Assembly: GCA_030295235.1 (NCBI GenBank)
Contig: AP026164.1
Coordinates: 806,001 to 870,000 of the forward strand
Direction: 5' to 3'
DNA length: 64,000 nt
Source of the DNA: Fistulifera solaris
Lineage: Eukaryota
Shown: one piece after another, positions 44,110 to 57,851 of the stretch
Layout of the letters: the number at the start of each line of letters is the position of its first letter
Position numbering within the stretch: the stretch's first letter is position 1
Position numbers and translations under genes: made by a program
The notes under the pieces: generated by a model
Seen by the model: only the letters and a program-made list of their open reading frames with translations
The model's database searches: none
What the model was told of the DNA's origin: nothing

Positions 44110-44481
44110 GGTCTTTTCAATTAGAAATAGTCACAACGAAACTGGCAACCTCGATGTTGTGACGAACCTCGATGTTGTGACGTACATCTTTCCATAGATC
44201 ATCTATCTAGAGATCATTGTCTATAGTCAATCTACAGTTCAATATCTGTAGGTCAACTATAGTCTATAGTTCATTATCTCAGGGGTCGATAATGTCGCAC
44301 GTCGCACCACAACAAGAAAATGTCGCACCAGCTTTTCCTAGCCAAAACATTTACGGTCATTTTCGCTTTTCGAAAAAACACACACACGACAATGACCCAT
44401 TTTAACAAGCGTTGATGTTCGAGTAAAGAAAGGTGTAGTGTTCATTATTTTCCGTGGGTCGTTTCACACAAACTAGTTTCA

Positions 44482-45943
44482 ATGACACAGAGATCAATTG
44501 AAACGTTTGCCCGCAATCTGTGGAGCCACTGGAAGAGTCGCGATGACTTTCTCAAAGCGCAAAAACACGTAGCCGGAATTCTCGCATTGGCTTTTGTGGG
44601 TAACAACTGGCCGGCATCGTATCCCCGCGATGAAAACGAGAATGCTCCCATGTTTTGGGTTATGAATGTGGTGATCTTAGTCGCAGCGCTGGTCACGATG
44701 CAACATGATGCCAATGGATCGGCTAGGGGCATTCAACCTCTTTCCAGGGATCAAACAGAAGAATGGAAGGGATGGATGCAATGGGCGTTTATCATGGTGA
44801 GTACTGGCCTGCGTAGAACGCTGTCAGGGTATATTATCAACTTTCTTCTGACGTCTATAACTTTGCTGCAGTATCACTACTTCAGAGCTCGCTTCGTCTA
44901 CAACGAAATCCGCATTTTCGTTTCCTCCTACGTCTTTATGACGGGGTGGGGGAACTGGCAGTATTTTGAAAAGAAGAGAGATTTCTCGCTAGAACGTGCT
45001 ATCAGTATGTGGCTACGAATCAATTACTTTCCGCTCTTACTTTGTTTGGTCGTCGGTACCAAACTCGACGACTTTTACATTGTACCGCTTCATACCACGG
45101 GCTTTTTTCGTCACCATGGCGACAGCGTACGTCGCTCACGTCTTGGAACGATTCATCAAGCCTGCCGTACAACGTAACTTGGCCGCCATCGGTATTAGCT
45201 TATTGGTGCATATTCTGTTTTATGAAACGCGGGCTGTCAATTTCTTAAAGTTCTTTTCCGACGAGATTTTCTTCCGCTTTCAGGCGGACAAGTACTCCAC
45301 TTGGTTTGGGATACTCGCTGGTTTTGGCTGGTCGTATGTCAAGAAGGCCATCCAATTTTACAATACAGCCCCGCCAGCCACACTTCATCAGAATATCGTT
45401 TCGGTGACACAAGGTGCAGCTGGTCTAGCCTTGATTTTGTTCTGGTACTTTATGTTTGGATCCATTCAGGACAAGTTCACATACAACCCGATGCACCCTT
45501 ATATTTTCTGGATCCCTGTCTTTGGTTACCTCATGATGCGCAACGCGTCGAAATATCTGACAGAGGTTCATTCGCACGCCTTGGAATTCTTTGGGCGCAT
45601 CACCCTGGAGACGTACGTGCTCCAGTTCCATTTGTTCATGTGCCGAGACGTCAAACACATTCCTATTGTGATTCCGGGCAGTGGTCCTACTGGACACATT
45701 CTTGTGAAGATACTCAACATGCTCCTCACGGGCGCTGTCTTTGTCGCGGCTGCTTACTACGCACGTAAGAATACTGTCGTAACGCAAGATTCGGCGACGG
45801 ATCTCATGAATTTGGTGCGGCAATACTATAGGACCGGAACATGGCCATCGGCAGAAGAAAATGAGGAAGGGGATGTCGACGTACCGCTTGTTAGGAAACA
45901 AGAGTCGCCGAATACAAGCGAAGGGAAGAACGACGATGTCTGA
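44482..45943 (+). CDS. CAS1/RWA-type O-acetyltransferase (Cas1_AcylT domain)
   Basis: LSRDQTEEWKGWMQ...YHY, YNEIRIFVSSYVFMTG, FRFQADKY, GRITLETYVLQFH; intron 44797-44871; frameshift near 45105. Confidence 0.92.
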
Positions 45944-46139: not shown

Positions 46140-46570
46140 AATAAATTCGCCCATGGTCTGGCACCGCATCGTCGTCGTTGGGGCACAATCGGCTGTCGGG
46201 TTGCATCCACCCACTTTGAATGAACCATGAAGCATCTGTCCGTTGCGTTTACTGTCCTTGAGGACCATCACGCTAGTCCGGATGGGTCAAATACCTGGTA
46301 CACAAAGTCCGGAATGTCCGCTGCCAACTCGGCTTTGAAGCTGTCAAAAGTGGATCGAGCGGAATCGTACATCTAGAGAGACCATGTGCGGTAGATGTTT
46401 AGCATGTTCATTTGTGATCATTGATCGTCATCATTGGGACAGAGGCGGCACTCCGGCTGGGTCAAACCGACAAACCCCGGAATGCGAGCAGTCGACTCGG
46501 CTTTGAAGCTATCAAAAGCGGAGCGAGCGGAACCGTTAGATCTATGTGCGGTAGATGTTAAGCGTGTTCA
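46140..46570 (-). repeat. Two imperfect ~120-130-bp direct repeats, apparently decayed coding fragments
   Basis: 46279-46411 aligns with 46453-46570; on the minus strand they read SARSTFDSFKAE and SARSAFDSFKAE. Confidence 0.7.
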
Positions 46571-46685
46571 CTACAAGAATACAGCACCATGCTAATCATG
46601 TTATCTCTGTGAGTACACAACAGTCAGGACGACCGATTCGACAAATCTTGGAAAGTAGGTGCCGAATTCTCATCCAAAATTTCGT

Positions 46686-49407
46686 TCAAAGACAGAGGCG
46701 GAGACTTGCGGCGCGTTTTAGACCAATTCTTTTGAATATTGTTGGTCTTCTTTTGAAGCCAGTCACCTTTCGGCTGAGTGGCTTTGGCACGCATAATTCC
46801 AAACCCTCGATGCTTGTATCTGGATTGCGATTCTCATCGGTTTCGAGCGCCAAACTTTCCTCTGCTTCTTCGCTGTCACTTTCCGTTCCACTATCAAACC
46901 CAATGTCGTACATAGCACGGTTCGCCTCCGCCAGCGTGATTCTTTCATGTAATATATCGTCCGCTAGCTTCTGTTGCTGCTCTTTCACAAAAACAACGTG
47001 GTCCTTTTTAAAACTGACAGCAACAGCTAAAGCGTCTGCTCGAGATTCTTCATCCTGGGGATCGAAGGGGAACGTCTTCCATTGCACTCGCGACATATAA
47101 GAGAGTTGGGCTAACCAAAAATTGTTTTCCTCAACCGACCGGACACCGGGTATTGTCCCATCTGTGCGCTTTTCTTTATGGATTTTCTTGTTGTAGCTTT
47201 GGCCCAGAGCAGTTGCCGCAACAAGATTATCTTTGCTGTTATCGTCGCGTTCATTGTTTACGTGATCGACTGTCAAACCCTTGCCGTCAAGAGAAATTTG
47301 GTTATGGATTTCATAGCACAAACAACCGAAAGTGTATTTTGTGCGCAAACCATGAGCATCATCGATGTCGACCGATCGTTCCATCCATCCATTCTCATAC
47401 CATTTCTCTGTGATGCTGAGCATTTTCTTCTTTTGATCATCCCAGCAATGAGTACCGCCAGGATCCACCCAAATATGTTCCAAGTGTCTTTCCGGATGGT
47501 GATTCCACATTCCATAATCAACTTTGACGTTAGGATCAATGCTCACTTTGGAACGAAACACTGGGTACTTGATGGATGATCTGAACCATGAAATAAGAGA
47601 ACGGTGAGAGCTAATGCCAACGAATGACAGACAAACGTCGTTGCAATACGTACAGAGGGTCCAAATTTTCTGCCCGATAATTGTCTTCCCATGGAATCCA
47701 TCGGAGCACGCGAATATCGTTGTTCCATCGATGACTGTCGTGCTGACAAATGTGACCCGCAGGTCGAGGTCCACCATAGGCTGTGAGGTTGAGGTGCGCG
47801 ATCGCATAACGGCAAGACCAACCAATTTGTTCACTTCGCAATGAGGCATATCGGTAGTAACCGCCTGAACCTCGCGCTGGTGTCGATTTGCATACTTTGA
47901 ATGTCCGAACTTTGTAAAGCTCTATGAAATCAGAATATTCTCGATCGGGGTATTTCATCACATATCGAATACCTACGATTTCCGTATCTCCGTCCAAAAG
48001 TTTTCGAATCGCAATGTCTTTGCTTAAATAGCGACAATGCACCGAAATCACGCAACCAATATCGCATATTAAGTAAACCACTGGAAATACGTAGTATTCA
48101 AATCCCTGACCATTGACTGAAATGGCATAATCAACTTCAAAGATGGCTTTCTCATCCACAACAATGAACTTTTCCAAGTTGAACACTAGCTTTCGAATGT
48201 CACCGAAGTTTATAGAGTCGTCATCATGCAGTTCACGAAATTCCATGTTTTGTGCCACACGATGAAGTTCGGCTCGTTCCTTGGCATGATCTTTGTAGAA
48301 GTTGTATTGGTTCAATAACTCAAATTGGACCTCACGGCTAATGATTTTCGCACGTTCGCCCACTTTGGCCGTGCCGTTTTCGGTTCGATTGAGCAGCCGA
48401 CGCACAACAGACGCCAAGACGAACGGAGGAAAGGGCCTCCCTTCTTCGTTGCACACTTCCATCTCGGATCGCCAATCCTCAAACACTTCATCCGACGCCT
48501 CTTCAAATTCTCGCTCGAATTTGATGCCCTTCTCTTTCCAACTCTTGACATTCCTTCTCCGTAATCAACTTTCCCGAAATAGTAATCGAAAACGCTTTTC
48601 GGTTGATCCTTCATAGTTGGCTGGAACTTTTTAATGCCAACAATTATGACAGGGTCTTCGGGATTTTTGGTATGCGCAGCAACGTGCATGCCGAGATCAC
48701 CCGAACCAGTATTGACGCGAGCATTCAGGTAGTCCCCATCTCCATTCTTGTCGAAGCAGAGCTTGCAGTACCATCCAGCAAATGGATGCCACAGGATGAT
48801 CTCGCTGACATGGACCTTTACCTTTCCCAGCTTACGCGTGTCGTTCTCCTTTTCGGATCGAACAAAATCTGCTGATCCGATGATCATATGCTCAAATTCT
48901 GAAGCGTGCCGCTCCAGTCCCTTTCTTGTGAACAGGACTTCGGCTTGCTTGAAGTCACGAACGCCTTGCTGATTTCGGTAACAGATAAGGCAGAAATAGA
49001 ACTTGTCCAGCGGATGTCGGAGATATGCTTTGTGTGCTTCCAGAGGACCGCCATTCGTTTTTTTTACCCCAGCGACCGCTTTCTGGCTTCTTATTTTTGA
49101 TGATGCGGTCGTCTTCCATCAAGACTTCCACGTGTCTACGAAATGCCTCTTCGTCAAAGGGAATGTCGCTGACTTCTTGGCAGAAAGAGTGACTCGGACA
49201 GCAGTCATGACTTGTGTGGTCCCCGCCGTGACTGCAACAGCTAGCAGTAACAGTGGTGTTGTTACTCGCTTGGTTGGCGACTTTGTCAACGTTCTCTAAG
49301 GGTTGTTCGTCGGGATCCCGTGATTCGGCGGGTTTTGAATTCGATTGGTGATTCGTGCTCGTTCGACGAACACTCCGTGGCGGAGCTTTAGCATCGTTCG
49401 ATGACAT
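46686..49407 (-). CDS. Zinc finger x2 - HNH - HNH - AP2-like endonuclease-type protein (~880 aa reconstructed)
   Basis: Four overlapping ORFs joined by two 1-nt shifts (near 49060 and 48553) and a GT-AG intron at 47581-47653; HNH motifs HICQHDSHRWNNDIRVLRW and TVDHVNNERDDNSKDNL; IPGVR...WLAQL...KTF...ALAVA. Confidence 0.75.
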
Positions 49408-50793
49408 GATGAAACACTAGCGTGTGGATTGACTGAAAGGAAGAGAGAACGATTGTAGTTATCTTGTTGTTTATGTATCGAAGCATTGACATGAGGCGCG
49501 CGATTCCCTTGCCGCACAGGATACTTTTAACTCGCTTTCGCGATCACTTTGCCCCCTTCTGTAGTCAGTCTGTAGTCCTCGTTTAAAGGGTAAAGATGAA
49601 ACGGAATCGGATAAGCTTCTAATTCAATGAAATGTTGATTCGCGTTGCTTGTCAATGAGGAACAATGCATTGCTCGCTCGCTCGTCTCGTCGCTCGTTGA
49701 TTATTGCGTCGATCAATTGCGTTCACGCCGGAGTGCTTCCTTGATGATAGTGACGACTAATTACTTGTGAAAGTCCAAATTCAAGAACAACGACATTTTA
49801 TAATGCAACAAAAAATTGTAGTGTTTAAACTAGGTAAAGCGTCATCTCTTACTGCAAAGTGTGAATCGAATTTCCGCACAGAGAAATATTATAAGTTCAA
49901 AATGTTCTTTGCGCTTATGTGGAATCACGAATTCGTTGTCGAAAGGTCACAGATCGGCGCGGCGCGCGATGCACGCGGTTTCTTTTGTCGCAGCGAAAAT
50001 GTGACACTATCATATGTAGTACCCCATCTTCACTGTAAATCAAACTGTAGTAGAGCTCTTTGATTCATGACACAAATGAATTTCAGTCCCGAACGTTGGG
50101 ATGCTGATGCTTCTGTTCGCGCTAGGCACCAAAAACACCAAAGGGAATCGGACGTACTACAAGTACCTGGTACTGGTACCTACTATTGACTTGAGTTTAT
50201 TTGAATCGAAGCGGTTCTGTCGCTCGTGCGAAGTTGACGATCCGACGCAAGGAGAAAGAAAATTTCGAAGCGAAAATCGATTAGTAAGAATGAGACGATA
50301 AAGAAGCCTTTTCTTGTGGGAACGTCTGAAGCGAAGCATGATGCTTTTGACATTGTCATAGAATGGTGTCAGTATGTTTCTCGGCTTTCGGAGAGCTTTT
50401 GTCGGCGATGTTTTCTCTGAATTTTCGATCGTGGGCAAGACCTAAAAGCCGATAAATCGGCACTCTAACCCTCAAGGATCGCCAAGAAACTGCTCATGTG
50501 TAAGCCTTGTATTCATACGAAAGAGTATTGACCTGAAAAAGAGCAAAAGTAATGCGAAATTCGATTGAAAGCGCTACTTTGATGTCGATGGCGACGAAAG
50601 AAATTTATTGAGGACAAGGTTTTGTGCGAACGACGAAACGCGAAAATTTATAAAGACGCCTTTCGGCGTCTGCCCATGCTCGCTTCGCTCGCGAGCAAGC
50701 CCCAAAAGAGGAGGAGGTCGTCTAACCGGGCCTTTAACTTAACCTTATCAAAGACCTGCGCTCGACTTTAACCCGAACCCTAATCTAAAAATC

Positions 50794-50865
50794 AACTCAT
50801 CTAGGATTCGAACCTAGGTTGACGGAATCAGAACCCGTAGTGATAACCAACTACACTAATGAGTC
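50794..50865 (-). tRNA. tRNA-Gln (anticodon CTG)
   Basis: Cloverleaf: acceptor GACTCAT/ATGAGTT, D stem GTG/CAC, anticodon stem ACGGG/TCCGT with loop TTCTGAT, T arm CTAGG-TTCGAAT-CCTAG; followed by a T5 Pol III terminator. Confidence 0.95.
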
Positions 50866-51107
50866 GCGGCAGAAGAAGGGAAACGGTTGCTACAACAATT
50901 GTCTAGTTTGTCCAAGAACTGACCGGTTTTTCGTATACTTACTACAAGTACTAGTCTATGGCTTCGAGTATTGATCTAGATTCTCTGGGGAGACGCATTT
51001 CAGAATATCTGAAACTGAAACCACCAACATCAATCTCACATTCTAGTTGAAACTACTTTACGTATATTACGGTTCAACTTATTTTAAACTTCATAAACAA
51101 ACACGCT

Positions 51108-52555: not shown

Positions 52556-55500
52556 TCAAATCGAAGTCCACGTATTGGGAACCGTCATGAAATACCTCTC
52601 CATCGCATTGGTAAAGCGCGCCTTGTACAAAGGTGGCTGAATGATCGTCGGTGCTTCGCTGCCCACTACCATCGGCAAGGACTTGCCCACCCTTTCCATC
52701 TGCTTCAAAATGTCGTATTGTCTCATGAAATCAATGATACCCACAACTAGTTCGTTGCTGTCTTCGTCAACTCCGACGAGAATAGAATAGTCCAGCACGT
52801 TAATGATGGATAAGAATAGTGTATCGTTCAAAATACTCATTTGGAAAAGAGCTTTCGCACGATCCGTTAAAGGAAGAGGTCGACCGCGTGTAAATTCTAG
52901 AAAATCTCCATCCAGCAAGGTTACTGGACCATCTCGCTTAACGGCAGATATATGGGTCGGCTCGTTGCCATCCAAAATAGAGTTGTTGTCGGAGTCCGTG
53001 ACATTGGCGCTCTTTGCTTTCGCGTTGATGTCCTCTTGTGATTCATCTTTGCGCTGCGCAGCGAAACGACCTCGCAAGCTACCTTTCAGATCGAAAATTT
53101 TATTGATATTCTTGTTGTAGAATATATTTTGCATTACTGCGACTTGTTCCATCGTTCGTTTGCCAGTTACACGGTTGTGGATGCCAATTTGGTAAACTCC
53201 GACAATTTTGCATAGCACAGTAGGACTGTCAAAAAAGAAAAAGGTAAGATGCGTGTAGCACTTCTAATTCTTCTTTGCAAGCAACTTACAGTCCGTGAAA
53301 GAAAGCCTTGCTCAAGTACTCCAAAATAAGCACTTGAACATTCCAGGAACATTTGCAGTTCTGTGCGACTGATGTTTTTCATAACAAACCTGTCATCGTT
53401 CGTCCTTGCAAACGATGCTCCACTCTTTCCTCCAGAAGCAGCCCAGGAATATGCGGAGGACAAACTTTCCATGTAAGACCGCTCTATATCTTCTTTATCT
53501 CCATCATCCCCGTTTCTAGAGAGGAACACCTCTCGAACGGCATGAAACTGCGTTGCCCAATATGATGTACAAACAAATTTGCAAGTTACTCGACCCTTTT
53601 CATCGTAGTCGCGGAACGTGATCTTAATGTGAGATTTTTTACGATTCAACATTTTTCGCTCAATCGTACGAGTTGATTCATTCAGTATCGATGATCGGGT
53701 GGTAGACGGAAGAGTTCCTTCTAATGATGGAGCTCCGGATTGGTCATTTTGTTGCTGTTTATGCGCTTGTGATGCGTGCATATCGTCCGCGTCTCCTTCG
53801 AACTTTGAAAAGTGCTTGAACTGTTTCGCGTATTCGGAAGACAAGAGTGAGTAGGCAATTATCGTACTAAGCTGTTCGTCGATGACCGGAACAATTATTC
53901 CGTTCACACCCGGCGCTAATCTGGGTCTGCCTTCGCTAAAGATGCCAAGATCGACTCGATATGATTCATATTCCCGTCCCCCACGATTAAAAAAAGCGCG
54001 TTATCGCTGATTTCACGGCACCACCGGGAGTTGATTTGGGTGGTATATTCGTTTCCAAAGAGTTAGCAAAATCGTCGCCTTGTCGTCGAGTCCCCAATGT
54101 TTTTTTCGGTGCTGGTTTACTGTTGCTGCGACCGCCCTCAATCGTACTTTGAACTGACCCTTTTGCTGTTTTCTGCAGTCGACGACGTGACGCCAAGACA
54201 TCAGCGTCGACGCCAACCGTAAAGTCGATAGAAGTGTCAGGCTGATCGTCAAATTCATCGTCGTCATCAAAAACGTTGGGATTGGGAATATTCGGAAGTA
54301 TCTGATTCATGTCGATGACGTCGTAGCGGGCGTATTGCTCATTAAGTTCCTTTAACCGTCTCATACCCTCTAAAAGTTCCTCCTGTAAGGGATCGCCAGG
54401 ATTGGTTCCGACTACTCCAGCTAGTTTTTTCATCGCTGATATTGCTTGGCCTGTGGCTGTCAGCTTTTCGTTCCATGCAGACATAACCATGAATAGATAT
54501 CGTTTGGCAAGACCAGGAAATCTTAGAACGGTCTGCAGTTCATCGCTTTGGCGACAGCTATCAGATACCGATGCAATCTTCTCTTGCAATGTTTTTGCCG
54601 CTAAATCCACTTCAGATCCAATCCGATTCAGCTCGGACAAAACAGTCTGTAAATGTTCCGGGCGGTTGTTGGCCGAATGGAAAAGTGACCTTGCTTCCCG
54701 CGATACTTTTTTCGATGTGCTTGTCGAATTTGACGAACAATTCCGACGACGCCATGGAGATAACGTCCAAACGGCGCATCGCCTCTTGGCGGTGCCATTC
54801 CAAAACAATAGGCAAAGTTTTGCGTACAAATACTCCGTAAGGCTTCACCGGTTCATAGGTGAAACGAGCAGCCAACGAATCGCAACCATAGTATAATACG
54901 GAAGACTGCAAAGGACACCCGCACTCCCGTAGTACACCGTCTCGATTATAGAAAAAGACTTCAAGAAACTTTCCGAATGACCATTTCCAAGTTTGCTCAC
55001 TAATGAAGACAGGGGCTGTGGCATTCTTTCGACAGTTCTTACAATAAGTCCAAGTTACAATTGGTTTGTCCGCTTCATCGTCAACTTCGTCAACAGTCAC
55101 ATCCTCCCTGTCGTCGCGATCGATTTCCCCTGGAAACGGAGTATCCAGTTCTTCCACCTATTTTGAAACTCAAGTAAGATTACTACTCAATTGTATCATG
55201 GGAACGAATTCGTCCTTACCGTTATGTTTATCAATCCATCATGGTGGACAAATGCCAGTGAGTGGTCAAGAACACTCTTCTTGCAACTGGGGTTCTGACA
55301 TTTTAATGACAAATTGAAACAAGAATCCCGCAAAAATTGACCCAGTGCAACATCCTGCAAAGAGTAATAGCATATACCTTTTACTTCAGCGGGGCAACAT
55401 TGTGACTTTTCAGCCATCCACACTGACGTTATTAGAATGGACTGATGATCCATGGCTGTGATTTCGCCTTGCTCAGTTTGATTAACATTATTATCGCCAT

Positions 55501-57286
55501 TCCAGGGCCGTACTTTTCGTCCAGATGGGGGCAAACCAAAATCGACAGCTAGCGATGATGATTTTACATGGGCATTGCTGACTGAGAAAGTCGGTTTCAG
55601 TAAAGCACCTCTTTCTTTGAGAAAAGCAGTTTCGAGTCGTAAATTGTATGCCACATGCACCACGAACCGCAAAACAGTTTTCACTTCCGCCAAAAAGTCC
55701 TTGGTTCCTCCTCTCAAAACGATGGTACACCCTAGATTTTTTGGACACCCTTCCAGCATCACGAAAGTGTTCGCTACACCACGTTTCGCTAAACCAGTTT
55801 TTACTGCCAAAGCACCATCCCAAACCTTTTCACCGAGTTGTTGCGCGCAGAGTGCGGCTTCACGTTCCATTGAGTTGCGCGGTTCTGTGTTAGGAACGTA
55901 TACTTCGTTGTCGCGAAAGGTGACCAGTCGAAAGCGTTCGCAGTAACCCAAGACTGCCGTACCAGAATGATTTAATACTTGCTCTGTGCTGGAGATTATG
56001 GCGGCACCTGTTTGGCGTGCAATGCGACTCAATAGCGATGCTTTGACGTGCTGGATAAGGATGATTTCTGCTCGTAATAGCATTTCCTGCGCCTTTCTGC
56101 TAGCAGATTTCCCAAGGATGACAATGTCTGGTTTGAGTTTGGTAATTTTGTTGATCAGAATTTCCAAGTATTTTGTCTCCTGTTCAAAGAGAGTATCCAA
56201 AGAAGCGAAATGGCCTTCGGCACGACCATGAAATTCCAGACTTCCGGCTACAAGTAATATTTTTGGTTTTATCACGAATTTGGCCATTCGTTTGTGTGTC
56301 ACTGTTTTGCGAAACACGATACCCGAAAGATATGCGCAATCCGAATAAGAACCACCAGCAATACGTTTGATTTTAACATACGGTCGAATGTCTAGCAAAT
56401 CACCTCGTCTCACGTTGGGCTCGACGGTCGCGCAGCATCGTGTGGCCAGTGTCAGCAACTGATGAATCCATCGTTTCCTGTTTGATTCCGGTAAATTCCA
56501 TATTCCAGCGGCATGTACACGTATGATTTCGGTTGCCATGGATTCTAGATGTTGCGCCGCTGCCTGTCCCACCGATCTGTTCGCGGACAAGGATTGCAGA
56601 GGCGGCGGTTCCGCCACTGGGGTCGTTTCTGCGACGTCATTGTTTCCTTTGATCTTGGTATCGTTCTCCTTCTCGCCGTCTTGAACCGACTGGTCTCGAC
56701 ACAGTTGACAGACTCGTTGTGTTGAATTCTTATGAGGAACAAAGTACGCGCTGCATGTGTTGCAGAACACTTGGCTGCACCGGGGACAAAGGTGTCTCCT
56801 TCGAAAAACAGTGAACGGCGTATCACAAGCAAAACAATTCTGCGACAGTTGTTCTGGTATCCAGTGTTTTTGATCTGTGTTCATTTTACCCGGACTCTCT
56901 GAGCTATTGAGTTGTTGTGGTTGCTCGGAAGTGTCTGGAGATTGTAGTATCGTCTCTGTATGCCAAAGAAATTCTTCCCATTCCTCCGTTTTCCTTTTTT
57001 CGGGTTGCTGTTTTCTCGGGTGAGTTGTCGCGACATTTTCGCTGTTACTTTCATCCTCCTCCTCTTCTTCACCAAGTCCAACGCCTAATTGAAGCCATTC
57101 TTGCGCTGTCGGTACTCGATTCTCGGGAAATTTGGTAACATTGACACCACTACCGTAAACGGGGAACTGCGTCAACTCATCTTCGGCCTCACCGTCGCGT
57201 GAATTCACGTCAATAAGAGCATGCTCATCCTTCTTATGGGCACTCGAGGTAGTCGTCCACGAAGGCGTCCACCAAAGACTATTCAT
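52556..57286 (-). CDS. FAB1: 1-phosphatidylinositol-3-phosphate 5-kinase FAB1/PIKfyve
   Basis: FYVE (WIPEQ..CFAC..FRRRHLC), CCT-like (DIRPYVKIKRI, GCTIVLRG), SFGKFLE, kinase GGKSGASF, FDLKGS, LDYSILVG, GIIDFMRQY; introns ~55160-55218 and ~53228-53289; several 1-nt shifts. Confidence 0.94.
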
Positions 57287-57419
57287 GGTCAATTTGAAGT
57301 CAAATGAATATTTGCATTCCTTGTTGTTGGAAACAAAATGCTTGTTATAGCTTTCTTTTATTTTACCCACAGCACTACCTATTTTTTTGTCCTCGGCGAC
57401 ACTCCCACTCGCAAGGAGG

Positions 57420-57851
57420 TTCATGACTGAAATGCAGTCGTGTTGAAACGTCGCAGACACTTGAGTCTATAGTGATTTGGAACAACGAAATTCCACAAGT
57501 ATTTTCTTCGCAAATACCTAGACCTGCATTACAACTGCTGCTGATGTTTATCGCATCGTGATCAGGACAAGTACTGCTAATCAATCTTGTAAAGGAACGA
57601 AGATTGAATAGATATCGGGCTCGGAAACATCATGATTCATGACTGAAATGCAGTCGTGTTGAAACGTCGCAGACACTTGAGTCTATAGTGATTTGGAACC
57701 ACGAAATTCCACAAGTATTTTCTTCGTAAATACCTAGACCTGCATTACAACTGCTGCTGATATTTATCGCATCGTGATCAGGACAAGTACTGCTAATCAA
57801 TCTTGTAAAGGAACGAAGATTGAATAGATATCGGGCTCGGAAACATCATGA
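57420..57851 (+). repeat. Tandem duplication of a 216-bp unit
   Basis: 57420-57635 versus 57636-57851, with three substitutions seen; the unit begins and ends in TCATGA. Confidence 0.92.

Follow-up and report, generated by a model that had tools for sequence, protein, structure and literature searches.

A two-exon nuclear gene of the diatom Fistulifera solaris as a probable resident derivative of HNH-AP2 endonucleases

Here we describe a gene on the minus strand of a 64,000-nucleotide stretch of Fistulifera solaris DNA (contig AP026164.1 of assembly GCA_030295235.1, positions 806,001 to 870,000; hereafter the window), whose product combines two units of the type seen in the phage homing nickase I-HmuI with an AP2-like domain. 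The window is eukaryotic nuclear DNA. The gene in it is real, and databases already list its product as a hypothetical protein. Taking all the evidence together, we lean towards the view that it is a domesticated, that is, resident, derivative of HNH-AP2 endonucleases, a two-exon nuclear gene of ordinary appearance from a Fistulifera-type diatom, with a product of about 903 residues, in which the apparent breaks of the reading frame are assembly errors. The first of its two nuclease units may still nick DNA. An initial annotation of the window had described four open reading frames (ORFs) at this place as a double-HNH plus AP2 endonuclease gene with tandem zinc fingers; what it observed is confirmed in part, and what it made of the observation is in part supported.

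The gene model rests on a database protein found by searching 5.8 billion protein clusters, with a word-based method, for the translation of exon 2. Two clusters matched. One holds the annotated “hypothetical protein FisN_5Lh380 [Fistulifera solaris]” (P0002), which has 903 residues and is 99% identical to the gene in the window, and the other is an unnamed cluster of proteins of 306-311 residues with 74-76% identity (P0001, P0017 and P0018). Compared with the window by tblastn, P0002 fell into five collinear pieces from 49407 to 46627 (residues 1-116, 103-326, 291-589, 586-863 and 860-903), which were 95-100% identical to the window except for a long frame-2 piece that overruns a break; the coordinates of the features reported here were worked out by hand from these pieces. 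The whole coding sequence (CDS) runs on the minus strand from the ATG at 49407 to the stop codon at 46626-46624 and corresponds to the 903 residues of P0002. It passes through four long minus-strand stop-to-stop ORFs, 48955-49416 (ORF1), 48312-49118 (ORF2), 47611-48564 (ORF3) and 46686-47921 (ORF4), while its C-terminal frame proper is the ORF at 46624-46833, and no stop codons lie inside the frames of the gene. The four ORFs on which the initial annotation was built are thus all present, as are all the motifs that it quoted, but they do not represent four exons, since three of the four breaks are one-nucleotide insertions or deletions. Its product of about 880 residues has to be replaced by the 903 residues of the annotated protein, and the CDS ends at 46624 instead of 46686 because of a third frame break, in an A4 run, that had been overlooked.

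Module 1 (47656..48126, minus strand; residues 147-303 in the model of the ORF3 piece) has, as modelled, an I-HmuI-type fold, in which an N-terminal beta-sheet is followed by a beta-beta-alpha-metal motif forming the HNH core. The AlphaFold model, built on a 20-row alignment of eukaryotic sequences only, had a mean predicted local distance difference test score (pLDDT) of 68.5 and a predicted template modelling score of 0.72, with pLDDT values of 82-90 across most of the core. It superposed on I-HmuI (1u3e_M; VIA-align) with Z 12.3 and a root mean square deviation of 2.3 Å over 103 residues, covering chain residues 1-104, and the next best structure reached Z 3.3; Foldseek also placed 1u3e_M at the top (probability 1.00, E 0.012). 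When two bacterial rows were added to the profile, hmmsearch of PDB sequences returned 1u3e at E 7e-6. The Pfam HNH_3 cut-off of 24.8 bits was passed by the aligned module 1 region of two relatives, P0004 (26.4 bits) and P0012 (26.8 bits), and a weak match to the phage family phrog_959 was obtained with P0002 (E 0.0054) and with the relative P0009 (E 5.7e-11). Within the HNH motif (47680..47757, minus strand; residues 551-576), His556 and Asn576 are invariant in all 20 rows and align with the histidine and terminal asparagine of I-HmuI and with the Pfam HNH_3 layout, and the central position is occupied by Asn-Asn. The residue before the histidine is glutamine in this family and aspartate in I-HmuI; Gln-His is also found in one motif of the bacterial HNH_3 protein P0015, which scores 78.5 bits.

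In HNH nucleases, catalysis relies on a histidine as general base, a central asparagine, and a terminal asparagine or histidine as metal ligand. Module 2 (47175..47519, minus strand; residues about 606-720), a second NUMOD4/HNH_3-like unit, carries its HNH motif at 47181..47282 (minus strand; residues 685-718), with Asp690-His691, Asn699 and Gln712. Placed in the Pfam register, it keeps the Asp-His pair and the central asparagine and has glutamine at the position of the terminal asparagine in all five rows, the distant P0009 included, so the full catalytic set, with residue roles taken over from what is known of I-HmuI and HNH enzymes, is incomplete here. It nonetheless passes Pfam HNH_3 in P0002 (residues 685-710, 25.6 bits, E 9.5e-6, against the cut-off of 24.8), the exon-2 piece of the window on its own scoring 21.1 bits, under that cut-off, and it matches the phage HNH endonuclease families phrog_99 (E 9.8e-8, residues 685-755) and phrog_4578 (E 2.9e-6). 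An ESM Atlas model of residues 606-788 aligned to viral HNH_3/NUMOD4 cluster models with template modelling scores of 0.63-0.67 by row, values that serve as leads only. Pfam NUMOD4 (PF07463) itself found no match in the window protein, in P0002 or in the aligned regions of the relatives other than the bacterial or phage-type P0015 and P0016. What bears on NUMOD4 is that the module 1 region superposes on the N-terminal sheet of I-HmuI, and that the NUMOD4/HNH_3 cluster models align at residues 606-788. A search of PDB sequences with the exon-2 profile returned nothing meaningful, and NCBIfam gave no match. Profile-profile comparison of the two modules (hhalign) aligned just a 21-column motif at E 0.2, and they are therefore not recent duplicates of each other. 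The two HNH modules seen in the initial annotation accordingly stand as two HNH_3 or I-HmuI-type units, on Pfam for module 2, on the fold for module 1, and on the PHROG matches.

The part of the protein that follows module 2 is predicted to be AP2-like, and we do not assign it to the Pfam AP2 family. This domain (47004..47153, minus strand; residues 728-777) is modelled as three strands and a helix and is below threshold in Pfam. In the model of exon 2, residues 146-226 are an exception to the generally poor quality, forming three strands and a long helix with pLDDT 65-82. The best structural neighbours of exon-2 model residues 144-200, all at low Z, were chains of the Toxoplasma gondii mitoribosome (Z 5.8 and 5.4) and the AP2 repeat of PfSIP2 (6sy0_A, Z 4.7). 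Two reports count four AP2-domain proteins in the T. gondii mitoribosome, of which the small subunit has one and the large subunit three (PMC11742926, PMC11652630); the chains matched here, which may be these proteins, are likewise one of the small and three of the large subunit. With Pfam AP2 (PF00847), P0002 gave no match at E<=10, whereas the aligned region of P0009 reached E 2.4e-6 and 28.2 bits, under the cut-off of 33.3, and the AP2-like profile run against PDB sequences drew only chance serpin matches. The nearest clusters in the ESM Atlas all belonged to viral or bacterial HNH_3, NUMOD4 or AP2 families, and are again leads only. The claim of an AP2 domain therefore holds insofar as an AP2-like tail follows the HNH units, by its fold neighbours and by P0009, but that tail remains below the Pfam threshold. 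Beyond the AP2-like domain, the protein is acidic and then basic.

We compared the window with contigs from four public runs of one study (X1-X4), whose kind, DNA or RNA, was guessed, and it is very probable that the three frame breaks are homopolymer-length errors of the assembly and neither introns nor signs of decay. The break near the C-terminus (46751..46754, minus strand) is an A4 run in the window and A5 in the reads; all four runs have one extra base behind 46750, which restores the P0002 frame (...GFKKKTNN...). The same is true of the ORF2/ORF3 break (48535..48537, minus strand), an A3 run in the window and A4 in the reads, where the only covering run (X1, depth 16.9) has one extra base behind 48534 and again yields the frame of P0002 (...VGKEKG...). 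The ORF1/ORF2 break (49058..49065, minus strand) is an A8 homopolymer, of which only an A7 version gives the P0002 frame (...GKK|TNGG...). The single contig covering this place, from X1, is two bases shorter (A6) and so matches neither the window nor P0002. We take A7 to be the real length, because only A7 joins the two long frames and because a zinc-finger-like pattern of ORF2 (pattern 1, below) lies upstream of the first methionine of its own frame. All four runs further differ from the window by substitutions at 46792, which turns a cysteine of the window into the tyrosine of P0002, and at 46794, which is silent. Pyrosequencing and nanopore chemistries are both prone to errors in run length, and the breaks are read as assembly errors because assemblies of this species were made with both. 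A pyrosequencing assembly and a nanopore-only, nanopolish-polished assembly of F. solaris are described in a preprint (bioRxiv 10.1101/2021.11.10.468027). The joining of ORF1 to ORF2 and of ORF2 to ORF3 in the initial annotation is thus to be understood as the bridging of single-base frame breaks in homopolymer runs, not of introns. Gene models in this assembly consequently need checking at the level of reads, given that three of the four ORF breaks that hinted at a multi-exon gene are very probably run-length errors.

The remaining break is the sole predicted intron of the gene (47581..47653, minus strand), which is 73 nucleotides long, reads GTACGT...CTCAC...TTCAG, and splits the codon of Leu585 in phase 2. 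Its removal joins ENLDPL|SSIKYP, identical to P0002, and the resulting protein aligns collinearly with the relative P0009 over residues 366 to 744 (29% identity, E 2e-32), without a gap at the junction. The canonical intron that was proposed from the start to bring module 1 into frame with module 2 gives the same junction as P0002, and the setting that went with it, a diatom nucleus and one canonical spliceosomal-type intron, holds as well. One X1 contig (47255-47672) crosses the intron unspliced and is DNA-like, and the other three runs have no coverage of 47644-47851 or of the intron; no splice joint came up in any of the four.

Searched with phmmer for the ORF3 piece, a set of 1.84 billion representatives yielded 14 matches, 12 of them unnamed eukaryote-like proteins with 29-55% identity (P0003-P0014) and the other two bacterial or phage-type proteins, P0015 and P0016, that match NUMOD4 and HNH_3 strongly. 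The predicted starts of the relatives align about 25-30 residues before the conserved block. P0009 has module 1, module 2 and AP2 in the same order as the diatom protein, and the cluster of P0001, at 76% identity, keeps every motif residue of module 2 and of the AP2-like part; only two clusters exceeded 70% identity when the 5.8 billion protein clusters were searched. Of the 12 eukaryote-type relatives, nine (P0003-P0008, P0011, P0013 and P0014) end one residue past the conserved ...DP, at the very codon that the window intron splits, and their last residue is always Q, K or E. Such ends would be explained by a phase-2 intron starting with GTAA or GTGA, where a gene caller blind to introns would read NAG and then meet a stop codon. 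P0012 extends 16 residues further and P0010 84, in both cases with sequence that looks unrelated, and module 2 and AP2 are reached in the P0009 cluster only. We infer from these predicted proteins that the exon boundary is common to relatives at about 30% protein identity, which would favour a long residence in eukaryotic genomes over a recent acquisition. The DNA of the relatives was sought in metagenomes, where no match was confirmed. As a separate observation, the read-through tail of P0012 after ...TP begins with G-K-C, as GGTAAGTGT would encode, which corresponds to a consensus GTAAGT donor; this donor is one base earlier in phase than the window intron, and may hint at intron sliding.

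Upstream of the nuclease units, the protein contains Cys/His-rich elements whose description rests on spacing and inspection of the sequence. These are a Cys/His-rich stretch at 49180..49239 (minus strand; residues 57-76 of P0002), zinc-finger-like pattern 1 at 48888..48992 (minus strand; residues 139-173), with CxxC, 24 residues and H-x5-H, and pattern 2 at 48672..48767 (minus strand; residues 214-245), with CxxC, 23 residues and H-x3-H. Pfam gave no profile match to any of them at E<=10, so that of the tandem zinc fingers originally proposed only the CxxC...H...H spacing is left. In the ESM Atlas, residues 110-300 yielded weak leads, the best (0.91) being unnamed archaeal clusters that share no common Pfam family, and the nearest clusters that do bear families, zinc-finger families among them, stood at 0.83-0.84. 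None of the 12 relatives covers the N-terminal 290 residues. A helical piece predicted with high confidence (48387-48504, minus strand; residues 21-60 of the ORF3 piece, pLDDT 84-91) is located upstream of module 1 and aligns with a block that is conserved in the relatives (...PPIFR... motif); it matched no known family or fold.

The surroundings of the gene are those of a host locus. On one side lie genes for DnaJ, TatD, a pseudouridine synthase, a sulfotransferase, a P450 and a Cas1-type acyltransferase, and on the other a tRNA-Gln (anticodon CTG; 50792-50866, minus strand, about 1.4 kb upstream of the gene start), RRP4, a FYVE/Cpn60_TCP1/PIP5K (Fab1-like) kinase and GST; there are no viral or element genes among these neighbours. 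The GC content is flat across the window, the GC content at third codon positions is 0.46-0.52 in the gene and 0.44-0.58 in ten neighbouring ORFs, and codon usage correlates with that of the neighbours at r = 0.82, inside their own range of 0.50-0.83. The gene is present in one copy within the window, is not inside another gene, and has no inverted repeats around it within 43-53 kb of the window. The idea of a surrounding viral island was rejected in view of the flat GC content, the housekeeping neighbours and the host-like codon usage. Searches of IMG/VR with P0009 and P0002 recovered no relative, and tblastn against 50,697 phage records gave no match at E<=1e-3. A viral source of the ancestor is nevertheless plausible, because NUMOD4-HNH_3-AP2 genes have been reported in a polinton-like virus of Symbiodinium (PMC12220804). 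The viral or homing-endonuclease origin suggested in the initial annotation can therefore be retained as plausible, the only look-alikes being phage and virus families of the HNH-AP2 type, although no close viral relative came to light; its alternative of a selfish nuclease element loses ground, as one copy in the window, the lack of inverted repeats, housekeeping neighbours and host-like codon usage give no pointer to current mobility.

If the gene is indeed a resident derivative of HNH-AP2 endonucleases, its product would carry, from N- to C-terminus, a lineage-specific Cys/His-rich region, then a conserved helical segment, a pair of non-identical I-HmuI-type units, each made of a beta-sheet DNA-binding element and an HNH_3 beta-beta-alpha-metal motif, an AP2-like domain, and a tail that is first acidic and then basic. 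The family to which it belongs would be small and eukaryotic, descended from phage- or virus-type NUMOD4-HNH_3-AP2 homing endonucleases and subsequently domesticated by the host. The AP2-like domain and the beta-sheet elements may bind a specific DNA site, at which module 1, with the catalytic histidine and both asparagine positions kept in every relative, could nick one strand much as I-HmuI does. Module 2, having glutamine at the last metal-ligand position, might be a weakened second nickase or only a DNA-binding scaffold.

Several observations weigh against this reading. Pfam HNH_3 did not match the window's own module 1, either in the module (E<=1) or in P0002 (E<=10), and with the eukaryote-only profile 1u3e was the sole meaningful match of hmmsearch in the PDB at a weak E 0.026. 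The model of exon 2, and with it of module 2, is poor (pLDDT 47), and the AP2 assignment is sub-threshold. Either nuclease site may be inactive, because glutamine replaces the aspartate before the histidine in module 1 and the last asparagine in module 2. The splice junction would depend on the annotated model, the canonical sites and the collinearity of P0009, and the shared intron position is drawn from predicted proteins and not from DNA, so the relatives might truly end where they appear to. Lastly, the A6 run of the read contig at 49058 would truncate the protein, which leaves the annotated record as the sole backing for an intact N-terminal fusion.

The glutamines bear on the idea that the protein is a catalytically dead DNA-binding regulator, in effect an AP2-type transcription factor that uses its HNH folds as scaffolds, an explanation we regard as unlikely while giving it real weight. 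It would account for the substitution at the last metal-ligand position of module 2 in all five rows and for that before the histidine of module 1; the AP2-like domain, the Cys/His motifs and the acidic tail recall the layout of transcription factors, and the genomic context and composition are host-like. Yet all 20 rows keep the histidine and asparagine of module 1, although overall identity is about 30%, which would not be expected had catalysis been lost, and Gln-His also occurs in P0015, a bona fide bacterial HNH_3 protein. An active selfish homing endonuclease or mobile element, which would cut empty sites and whose two nickase modules would together produce a double-strand break, appears improbable. 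All detectable kin outside the family are indeed phage or virus HNH, NUMOD4 or AP2 endonucleases, such genes are carried by the Symbiodinium polinton-like virus, and a chain with two HNH units might in principle cut both strands. Nevertheless, the gene is a single copy in 64 kb that lacks flanking inverted repeats and has a host-like composition, its neighbourhood holds no viral or element genes, only two clusters above 70% identity turned up among the 5.8 billion, IMG/VR and the phage records hold no relative, and a spliceosomal-type intron is apparently common to distant relatives. Rather improbable, to our mind, is a more far-reaching version of host use, in which an old, intron-bearing eukaryotic family fused two different I-HmuI-type nickase units with AP2 into a site-specific double-strand endonuclease, standing midway in stramenopile-alveolate lineages between homing endonucleases of the HNH-AP2 kind and AP2 transcription factors. 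If this were true, possible uses would be against integrated or infecting viral DNA, or in starting recombination at defined loci.

Two other explanations concern the integrity of the gene. That it is a pseudogene decaying in this genome, with real frameshifts, seems quite improbable: there are three frameshifts in 2.8 kb, and the read contig at 49058 also lacks the annotated frame, but all three breaks fall in homopolymer runs and two are contradicted by reads (four of four runs in one case, the one covering run in the other). Moreover, the frames are free of stops, the copy at 76% identity keeps all the motifs, and the pyrosequencing and nanopore-only assemblies of the species are of the kinds in which run lengths go wrong. 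It is highly improbable that the 903-residue model fuses two genes, an upstream zinc-finger-like ORF and a core protein starting at a methionine near residue 286, just before the second break. This proposal draws on the fact that none of the 12 relatives has the N-terminal 290 residues, their starts aligning shortly before the conserved block, and on the unsettled A-run at 49058. The read-corrected sequence, however, is one open frame without a stop from 49407 to the intron, and pattern 1 precedes the first methionine of its own frame and is therefore translatable only as a continuation of ORF1.

The diatom gene, read as a resident HNH-AP2 derivative, can be compared with several known systems. 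The HNH homing nickase I-HmuI is encoded inside a group I intron. The enzyme, from Bacillus phage SPO1 (PDB 1U3E), is like module 1 over residues 1-104, sheet and HNH motif included, and its catalytic histidine and terminal asparagine line up with those of module 1, and identity is only 19%; its C-terminal helices and helix-turn-helix are unmatched in module 1, and, in contrast to I-HmuI, the diatom gene is nuclear, has a spliceosomal-type intron and encodes two such units per chain. The HNH_3-AP2 and NUMOD4-HNH_3-AP2 endonucleases of phages and viruses (phrog_99, phrog_4578 and phrog_959, and the polinton-like virus gene) show the same order of HNH_3 followed by AP2, and the match to phrog_99 (residues 685-755) runs in P0002 from the HNH motif to just inside the AP2-like part. 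These proteins are about 160-380 residues long with one HNH, whereas the diatom protein has 903 residues, two divergent HNH units, additional N-terminal Cys/His motifs and a host-like genomic context. The AP2/ERF and ApiAP2 domains, exemplified by the AP2 repeat of PfSIP2 (6SY0) and by AP2 proteins in the mitoribosome of T. gondii, have a three-stranded sheet on a helix, as the diatom tail is predicted to have; unlike in the plant and apicomplexan factors, the AP2-like domain of the diatom is joined to nuclease modules.

Germline-limited HNH-AP2 genes of Tetrahymena, which reportedly reside in mobile elements that are eliminated, are eukaryotic and nuclear too, while the diatom gene is found among housekeeping genes and has tandem HNH units. 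It has also been proposed that the AP2 DNA-binding domain found in plants and apicomplexans came from HNH-AP2 endonucleases. In this light, a host-resident diatom gene with two nuclease units and an AP2-like domain would be a concrete case of domestication caught part-way, and an especially telling one because its exon boundary is apparently shared with relatives at 30% identity. Its product is also a candidate natural sequence-specific nickase. The literature searched held no description of the architecture, that is, of a nuclear diatom gene that carries an intron and encodes two divergent I-HmuI-type HNH units and an AP2-like domain; the work on diatom AP2 transcription factors had nothing on an HNH-AP2 architecture among the matches listed, and the locus tag FisN_5Lh380 was found neither in the literature searched nor in the one supplement of PMC5935921 that was checked.

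Some minor features of the locus deserve mention. Two of the neighbouring genes are also broken up in the window: the Fab1-like kinase (52556-57466, minus strand) occupies five ORFs, of which four overlap their neighbours and the fifth is separated by a 38-nucleotide gap, and the Cas1-type acyltransferase (44416-45943, plus strand) occupies two that overlap. Introns could account for these breaks, as could more homopolymer insertions and deletions like those of the HNH gene. Opposite exon 2 lie two antisense ORFs, 46555-47100 (plus strand, 181 residues) and 47115-47579 (plus strand, 154 residues), which are probably a by-product of composition. Just downstream of the stop codon there is a direct repeat (46302-46570) of two copies with a start-to-start distance of 160-168 bp, similar over 67 nucleotides at 82% and over 27 nucleotides at 93% identity. 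An X1 contig has a loose end at 46544, and its first letters match the end of the other repeat copy, which suggests that the reads and the window differ in repeat number.

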